A stretch of DNA of 64,000 nt, taken from NCBI RefSeq assembly GCF_057098645.1, contig NZ_CM169472.1; one strand, 5' to 3'. Position 1 is the stretch's first letter; the number at the start of each line of letters is the position of its first letter. Of the stretch, positions 17,001 to 20,000 are shown in pieces. Made by a program: the position numbers.

Positions 17001-20000
17001 CGATAGCGCCCATTAAGTACGCCGGGTTTTACGCCGTCGTACTCTTTTCCGCTGTGATTTTCTTCAGCGGATAGCGGGCAAATAGCTCCACCTCTACACA
17101 TTGCCCACTGGCAACTTGTGTCGGCACTGGCAAAACCCGATTAAGCACCGTCGCATAACGGGTCAGTACCGTTTTGCTGGTGCCACTGCCAGTAACCCAC
17201 AGCGGTGTACCATCGGTTAACCAGCCAGCAAAACCACCCTGACGGATTTCCTGTTTATTATCGGCAAACCAGCTCCAGGTTTTCACCCGTACCCGACTAC
17301 CGAGCATAGATGCGACGCCGATTTTCGCCTCGTCCAGCACCACATCCAGTAAGACTTCCTGAGCTTTGTTTTGCGCAGGTAACGTCGCTAATGAATCAAG
17401 CAGCGATTTAACCGTTACCGAGGTTTCCGGCTTCAGCGAAGAAAGAGACGCTAACCACGCAGGTGCCTGACGCTGTTGCCAGTATTGCCCCCACACATCT
17501 GCGCCAATATGCAACCGCTGCGGCGCAAAATAGAGCCCACAGGAACGTACCAGCGCGGTATCGCGCGTTATGCTCTCCCCAGCCTGACAACAATAAACCT
17601 CTTCCGGGGAGTTTCCGCGACACTGGTAGGGCTGCTCCGGTTGATGGGTATCCTCCAGCCAGGCGTAAACATACAGTTTCCACAAACTCCCTAACGGCGT
17701 GGTGAGCGAGTCAGGTAATGCTGAGACTTTGGTCACGCCTGATGACGACAGCTGATACAGTTGATAGTGCTGCGCACCACGCAGTGCCAGTTGTAACGGC
17801 GTCTCCTCCGCAAGCGTTGGCAGAGTAACCAACGCCAATATCCAGACGATTCTGCGCCAGTTCACTTATTTCACCTGCATCCCGGTCCATTCACTCCCTG
17901 CCGCAACACTTTGCTGCGCAGGTGCATAGGAACGCACATAACGAGCAGGAGGCAGAACGAATTGCCCTTTTTGCGAGAAGCGCAGCAAATGGCGGAAAGT
18001 GACCGTTCCCGTCAGTTCTTTCACCGGCACCATATAGGCCAGTTCGCCCATTTCATTACGCGCTTTTTCCAGCAATTGCCCCTGCTGTTTCGCGGCGTTA
18101 GGTTTATTGACCGAAATGCCCCACGTTGTCCGTTCAACGTCGGCTCCCGGCGGGAGCGGAACTTCCACCTGACCGTAGCGCAGAACTGCATCCTGCTCGT
18201 TAGTAAGCGTGATTTCATCGAGATACAGCGCATCGCTGTCAATCTCATTGCTGGTCACTGGCTGCAGAGTAAAGCTCATCTCTTCTTCACCAGGGATAAG
18301 CCGATACAACTGGCGTTCAACGGTCACCGGAATGTTACTTTGTTGAGCCGTTTTTGCCGGTTCACGCCAGCGGACCTGCACATTTTGCGGCGATAATTCG
18401 TCACCAAAAGAGAGAATGTCCGGCACGCCCTGACCAACCCAACGCCAGTATTCGCCCCCTCCAGTTAACTTATGTTTGGCCCATGCGCCCGCAGGCGCAG
18501 GCAACACAACCGAAGGCATTGTCGCCATATATTTCGCCAGCCAGTTCATGGCCAGCGCGCGCTCAATAGTAGATTGCTCAGCGGTCAAACCACTTAAAAT
18601 AGCAGCCGCCTGGGTAGCGTCGCCCCCGCTATTGAGCAGCACAACCGTGTGTGCCAGCGGCTGATTGCTGTTTGCCGCTTTATCCCACGCATATTGCTGA
18701 ACCTGTGGCATCACCGTGGACTTCAACTGCGCTTTTTTCAGCAACGTCATGGTTAAGACGTTTGCCACCGCATCTGCCAGTGGAGATTCCGGTGTATCGA
18801 GGATCATGCTGTCATTGATATCGCTGGTGTCTTCCTCAGAGAAATCTTCAGTTTTAGTTCCGCGCCGGGCGATAGCTTCATCCAACCCTTTTAGCAATGT
18901 TTTGCACGGCAGATTCATCTCCTGCGCCCACGCCAGTACCAACGCCCGATGCAATAACGGCATGTTGTCCGCCTGCTCCGCGTAACTGTCGAGCATATGC
19001 TGCCAGTATTCCGGTTGTTGCGTTACGCCGAGCGCCTGGCTGGCCTGCCAGTCGGCGTACCATGCCCATGCCGTAAGGAAGGCGTCACCATTGCCATCTT
19101 CACCCCACCAGGTAAAGCGCGCTCCGGGCCCCGCCAGTTGCATCAGCCGCAGACGGTTATCCTGAATCATCTGACGAATGTCGTTAGCGGTGGCACTTTG
19201 ATGATCGGCAAGCGAACGCCAGGCGAGACTGAGCGGGATCAGACGGCTACCGGTGTTGATCACCCCACCCCATGGTTCATCGACTAACCCATCAAGATTG
19301 TTGCGGAAAATCTCCTGCGGCGTTTCGCTACTTTGTAGCCGGATATTGCTAGCCTGCTCGGGCAACATCAGCGCGTTCTCGCCACCGCCGAGCATGACAT
19401 TTTTCTGCTGTTCAACGGGCCAGCTGTTATCCACAAAAGACAGTTTTGTGCTAATGCTGTCCTGCACTTGCCCATTTTGTTGCAGTTCTGCGCTTAACAA
19501 GCCAGATTGCTGAATGTTCTGCGTCAGCGAAATATAATTCGCCCCTTTGTGCAGCGTCAGCGTCTGGCGCATCTCAGCGCCTGCAAATTTAGTCACCAGC
19601 GCCACCGGTTCGTTATCCTGCTGACTGAAGATAAACAGTCCTGCTGCCGGTTTGTCGCCCATGCGATACACCGTTGGCATACTCCACTTCATGTAGAGAT
19701 TTTTTTCCGAACGCAGATAAGCACGCCCCTGCCCGACCAGCCCGTCGCCGTTCATCCCACGCGCGGTGATACGCCAGCGGGTTAACGAATCAGGCATCAG
19801 GAACGTGAAATACGCTTTGCCTTGTTTATCGGTTGTGAGTGACGGCATCCATGCCGCGGTATCCACCTCTTCACGCCGTGGACGTTCAAGCATTTTTACT
19901 CGCCGCTCGCTGCGGTTAGTTGCGCCAGGCGCAACCGGCTCGCTGGAGAGCGCCTGGTCGTAGCTGATAAACGACAGACTGGAGCTGGTACGCACATTGT

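Follow-up and report, generated by a model that had tools for sequence, protein, structure and literature searches.

Has yfaQ really been lost from this Escherichia coli chromosome, or does its interrupted reading frame reflect an error in the assembly, or a gene that is still expressed in some unusual way? The question arises from a 64,000-nt stretch of an O145:H28-type chromosome (the window, by which we mean the whole stretch that was analysed). A preliminary description of the window had proposed a 1-nt deletion frameshift in yfaQ, based on two overlapping ORFs in different frames and a coding span that is one nucleotide too short. The same two ORFs appear in our six-frame ORF list, both on the minus strand, at 17029..17865 (278 aa, GTG start) and 16217..17101 (294 aa), and both halves translate into YfaQ-like protein. 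The span from the first codon to the last sense codon (17865..16220), which we recomputed, is indeed 1646 nt, where 549 codons need 1647. The length of 549 aa, given in that description for YfaQ of K-12, is correct, as the b2226 CDS is 1650 nt long; the CDS of TB06052, the closest intact relative, also has 1650 nt.

We aligned the window copy with the O145:H28 genome RM12581, the intact TB06052 allele and K-12. The alignments with TB06052 and K-12 show that a single A is missing at CDS position 834, the third base of codon 278, which places the deletion at 17033/17032 in the window. This is the 3′ edge of the interval (about 17031..17143) in which the frame switch had been predicted to lie. 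In a longer context, the intact allele reads GACGGCAGTAAAACC and the window GACGGCGTAAAACC. Codons 278 and 279 change from GCA GTA (Ala278 Val279) to GCG TAA. Since the deletion itself generates the stop codon, the truncated YfaQ would carry no aberrant tail. If the A is put back, a single open ORF of 549 aa results, which is identical to K-12 YfaQ at 539 of 549 positions and to the TB06052 protein at 547 of 549; the loss of one base is all that closes the frame. The alignment of the repaired ORF revealed no further lesions in yfaQ beyond the missing A, and from this we conclude that the pseudogene is young. The gene and its parts are the following:

16217..17865, minus strand: yfaQ pseudogene of 1649 nt (the intact gene has 1650 nt and encodes 549 aa)
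17032..17865, minus strand: N-terminal frame that is left, residues 1-278, with a Sec-type signal peptide and the first DUF2300 domain (84-205)
17032..17033, minus strand: deletion junction, one A lost (intact GACGGCAGTAAAA, window GACGGCGTAAAA)
17029..17031, minus strand: premature TAA at codon 279 (GTA to TAA), made by the deletion
16217..17028, minus strand: out-of-frame C-terminal remnant, residues 279-549, with a SpoIID-like segment (312-374) and the second DUF2300 domain (412-532)

How widespread is this allele? Of 5426 complete E. coli genomes, exactly 26 have a perfect match to a 54-nt probe over the deletion. These 26 genomes are listed as O145:H28, O145:NM, O145 or untyped, and they come from several laboratories and from US, Canadian, Japanese and other sources. 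About 3475 other complete genomes match the probe with a span of 55 nt, which is the intact allele. We also drew a sample of 59 non-O145 genomes across the whole similarity ranking. The yfaQ match spans exactly 1650 nt in 58 of them, including O55:H7 and O157:H7, and the remaining genome has a large deletion. In O145 genomes, the RefSeq (PGAP) label of the gene is “YfaQ family protein, frameshifted”. Judged by these genome comparisons, the frameshift is a real mutation that is fixed in the clone and uncommon elsewhere.

Two of the annotated O145:H28 pseudogenes, ECRM12581_RS35365 (NZ_CP007136.1) and CCU01_RS30160 (NZ_CP031919.1), have the same deletion and the same linkage to an internal stop in yfaS. 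Compared to the O145:H28 pseudogenes in RefSeq, the window has one extra SNP at 17766 (GAT to TAT, D34Y), which neither the 26 complete O145 genomes nor TB06052 and K-12 share. All 26 match the window’s yfaQ at 99.9%, none at 100%. The strain of the window is therefore distinct from every complete genome in the comparison.

The second lesion lies in yfaS, the gene directly upstream. An amber codon had been noted there in the preliminary description, and the alignment confirms it: codon 428 of 1504 is changed from GAG to TAG (window 21099..21097). A 55-nt probe, designed to seed on the TAG allele only, finds the same 26 complete genomes as the yfaQ deletion and no others. Among the complete genomes we found none that carries just one of the two lesions. 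Both defects are already flagged in the public annotation of all 26 complete genomes of the clone. A literature search on yfaQ or yfaS decay in O145:H28 returned nothing, and a comparative paper on O145 from 2017 does not mention the yfa genes (PMC5567499). The operon, in the order of transcription, consists of the following features:

23024..24712, minus strand: yfaA (DUF2138), first gene of the operon, intact according to the annotation
22404..23027, minus strand: yfaT (DUF1175), intact according to the annotation, whose coordinates are shifted by 1 because of an indel at 8643
17866..22380, minus strand: yfaS pseudogene (type II alpha-2-macroglobulin), with the RefSeq note “internal stop”
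21097..21099, minus strand: yfaS amber, codon 428 of 1504, placed by alignment and present in the same 26 genomes
15436..16212, minus strand: yfaP, last gene of the operon, intact according to the ORF list and the annotation

The TAA of yfaS (17868..17866) directly abuts the GTG of yfaQ (17865..17863), and an AGGTGA Shine-Dalgarno sequence lies 5 nt upstream of this GTG. Hence, yfaS and yfaQ are probably translationally coupled in the intact operon.

The window copy is a member of the YfaQ family by descent, but it is a pseudogene. The domains were located with Pfam on the TB06052 protein, an intact sequence that matches the repaired ORF of the window at 547 of 549 positions: DUF2300 lies at residues 84-205 (E 9e-43), SpoIID at 312-374 (E 1e-5) and DUF2300 again at 412-532 (E 1e-45). 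With this protein as a proxy, the repaired gene has the two DUF2300 domains (PF10062) in one polypeptide of about 549 aa that, with a SpoIID-like segment between them, characterize the family. It also has the expected place in yfaA-yfaT-yfaS-yfaQ-yfaP, directly 3′ of the type II alpha-2-macroglobulin gene, as judged by annotated synteny in O145, TB06052 and K-12, with which the window is co-linear. What it lacks is the uninterrupted frame (1649 nt, stop at codon 279).

Of these domains, the truncated YfaQ retains the first DUF2300 copy, in addition to the signal peptide, whereas the SpoIID-like segment is lost together with the second copy. Residues 1-278 equal those of the intact protein apart from L9I, D34Y and T143S, and there are no further stops in the out-of-frame C-terminal remnant. 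The break falls between predicted domains, and it is conceivable that a stable N-terminal fragment is made. Other searches add little: an NCBIfam scan finds no family for full-length or N-terminal YfaQ and, for the C-terminal half, a sub-threshold SpoIID/LytB match only (20.8 bits vs a cut-off of 83.3); a PDB sequence search with intact YfaQ gives no match at E up to 1. YfaQ has been described as bipartite and exported by the Sec pathway, its C-terminal part being SpoIID-like, and deletion of yfaQ from K-12 leads to wider cells and a phenotype profile tied to peptidoglycan and envelope genes (bioRxiv 10.1101/2025.02.11.637708). According to the same study, about 2% of the E. coli genomes have no yfaQ, and these are concentrated in certain sequence types; absence is defined there by nucleotide coverage, a criterion that is blind to a 1-nt frameshift.

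YfaQ of K-12 (b2226, a “tandem DUF2300 domain-containing protein”) sits in the same place between yfaS and yfaP and has the same Pfam architecture, again scanned on the TB06052 protein as a proxy. The window copy differs from it by the absence of the A at CDS position 834, by its end at codon 279, and by L9I and T143S, which are clone-wide, and D34Y, which is private to the strain. In K-12 it is yfaS that is a pseudogene (b4500), whereas yfaQ is intact. Hence, although lesion and gene differ, the same operon has been inactivated independently in another E. coli lineage, from which we conclude that the operon decays repeatedly in E. coli.

The yfa operon corresponds to magABCDEF of Pseudomonas aeruginosa. 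MagD is a type II alpha-2-macroglobulin without a thioester and MagE (PA4488) is encoded by the fifth gene (PMC3735191). MagE has a mass of 61.7 kDa and a signal peptide, and its gene directly follows the alpha-2-macroglobulin gene (PMC3735191, Table 2). MagD is processed differently when magE is deleted (PMC5764988), and the mag operon protects against peptidoglycan-targeting T6SS effectors (PMC12663445). Common to mag and yfa is the order of an alpha-2-macroglobulin, a signal-peptide protein of about 61 kDa and a protein of about 28 kDa, whereas the E. coli operon has five genes and that of P. aeruginosa six. Gene order, protein size and the signal peptide suggest that YfaQ is the equivalent of MagE. 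In the window, the MagD-like and the MagE-like gene are both broken.

We therefore return to the question posed at the beginning. It is very probable that a genuine 1-base deletion, fixed in the O145:H28 clone, has made yfaQ a pseudogene. With the A lost at CDS position 834 and GCG TAA in its place, translation would end after residue 278 of 549. In yfaS, adjacent and upstream, the central type II alpha-2-macroglobulin of yfaA-yfaT-yfaS-yfaQ-yfaP would be cut at codon 428. Probably yfaQ has lost its function, and relaxed selection may have been the cause of the loss of both genes. As the genomes in which yfaQ is broken also have a broken yfaS, the Mag-like periplasmic envelope system as a whole is most likely non-functional in the O145:H28 clone and decaying. 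The preliminary description had suggested that the locus is decaying in this particular strain. The decay is borne out by two lesions in the same 26 genomes and by the PGAP pseudogene calls, but it is fixed across the clone and not specific to the strain. The best reading is hence a recent decay of the Mag-like operon that has become fixed in the clone.

The derived substitutions in the yfaQ remnant (L9I and T143S across the clone, D34Y in the strain) are non-synonymous in all three cases, with no synonymous change. This is consistent with relaxed constraint, but three changes are far too few as proof.

One could also argue that the Mag-like operon was inactivated under positive selection in the ancestor of O145:H28, and that we are looking at adaptive loss instead of neutral decay. 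Two independent knock-outs in adjacent genes of a single operon have been fixed in the clone, and yfaS has been lost separately in K-12. A magD mutant of P. aeruginosa grows better in chlorhexidine, suggesting that the system comes at a cost (PMC12663445), and a depletion of yfaQ is reported for certain sequence types (bioRxiv 10.1101/2025.02.11.637708). A pair of hits in the same operon is, however, also what neutral decay predicts once one gene of a complex is gone, and a bottlenecked clone readily fixes neutral pseudogenes. Moreover, yfaA, yfaT and yfaP are still intact. On balance, we consider positive selection unlikely. A more specific version would hold that the yfaS amber and the yfaQ frameshift together form an adaptive, lineage-defining loss in EHEC O145:H28, in which protection against peptidoglycan-targeting attack was traded for an envelope or fitness benefit, and that the N-terminal DUF2300 fragment might keep an activity of its own. 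This we regard as a long shot.

Could yfaQ still work despite the frameshift? A programmed +1 shift might yield full-length YfaQ, or the two halves might be made separately and both function. The break lies between Pfam domains, residues 1-278 are free of an aberrant tail, the C-terminal frame still contains no stop, and this frame offers a GTG about 29 nt after the TAA as well as an ATG at 17101. Recoding would be expected to be conserved among homologues, but the frame change is found in 26 of 5426 genomes, and 58 of the 59 others sampled have the 1650-nt gene. Seen against the more than 5300 genomes that have the gene, the confinement of the frameshift to 26 means that this is not an ancestral recoding site. 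Inspection of the sequence ACG GCG TAA AAC also reveals no slippery or hungry-codon motif, and the tRNA that decodes GCG cannot re-pair on CGU in the +1 frame. Known +1 frameshift sites include CUU UGA in prfB. We therefore reject programmed +1 frameshifting, as the frame change is not conserved and a slippery motif is missing. Separate halves fare no better: a C-terminal piece made by re-initiation would come without a signal peptide, which a predicted periplasmic protein needs (bioRxiv 10.1101/2025.02.11.637708), and the partner gene yfaS is broken too. A functional yfaQ, by either route, is extremely improbable.

The weakest alternative, already raised in the preliminary description, is an indel error of sequencing or assembly, in which case the organism would have an intact yfaQ. 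A C-run difference at 8643 leaves such errors possible in principle in this assembly; we reject the alternative as extremely unlikely, because the lost A lies between C and G (GACGGC(A)GTAAAA) and not in a homopolymer or low-complexity run, because the identical allele recurs across laboratories in 26 independently sequenced complete genomes, and because the same 26 carry the yfaS amber in perfect linkage, which is a substitution and not an indel-type error. The genuine deletion thus stands.

The assembly itself appears clean. Compared to the O145:NM genome FWSEC0002, the first 25 kb of the window show 5 SNPs and an indel in a C-run, and the rest shows about 10 SNPs and has one 88-nt repeat unit more. 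Relative to the closest O145 genome, the whole 64-kb window thus differs by about 15 SNPs, a single C-run indel and a single repeat unit, and it is the small number of these differences that speaks for the quality of the assembly.

As an ordinary frameshift pseudogene, the yfaQ lesion has little importance beyond correct annotation. Nevertheless, the two linked pseudogene alleles are diagnostic and mark the O145:H28 clone. Beside yfaS of K-12, they also add a further example of the recurrent decay to which the yfa (Mag-like) operon, still poorly understood, is subject in E. coli. If the envelope and anti-T6SS role proposed for the operon holds in E. coli, then O145:H28 would be a natural double mutant in which this role can be tested.

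The surroundings of yfaQ have a history of their own. In K-12, the atoSCDAEB operon of about 7.3 kb lies between rcsC and yfaP. It is absent from the window, from O145 and from TB06052, and rcsC directly adjoins yfaP, with 15162..15435 as the intergenic region. Compared to TB06052, divergence across 15436..24760 is mosaic: there are only about 9 differences over yfaS-yfaQ (17000..22100), as opposed to dense SNP clusters in yfaA/yfaT (22500..24600) and in yfaP (15600..15810). This mosaic pattern suggests recombination breakpoints within the yfa operon.

Two further length differences from FWSEC0002 lie outside the operon. At 8643, between ompC and rcsD, the window has C5 where FWSEC0002 has C6. 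This is the sole homopolymer-length difference in 64 kb, and it could be either real variation or an assembly indel. Between nrdA and nrdB, at 35240..35496, the window contains a REP/BIME-like tandem array of an 88-nt unit (2.9 copies, 97% matching), which is one unit longer than that of FWSEC0002.
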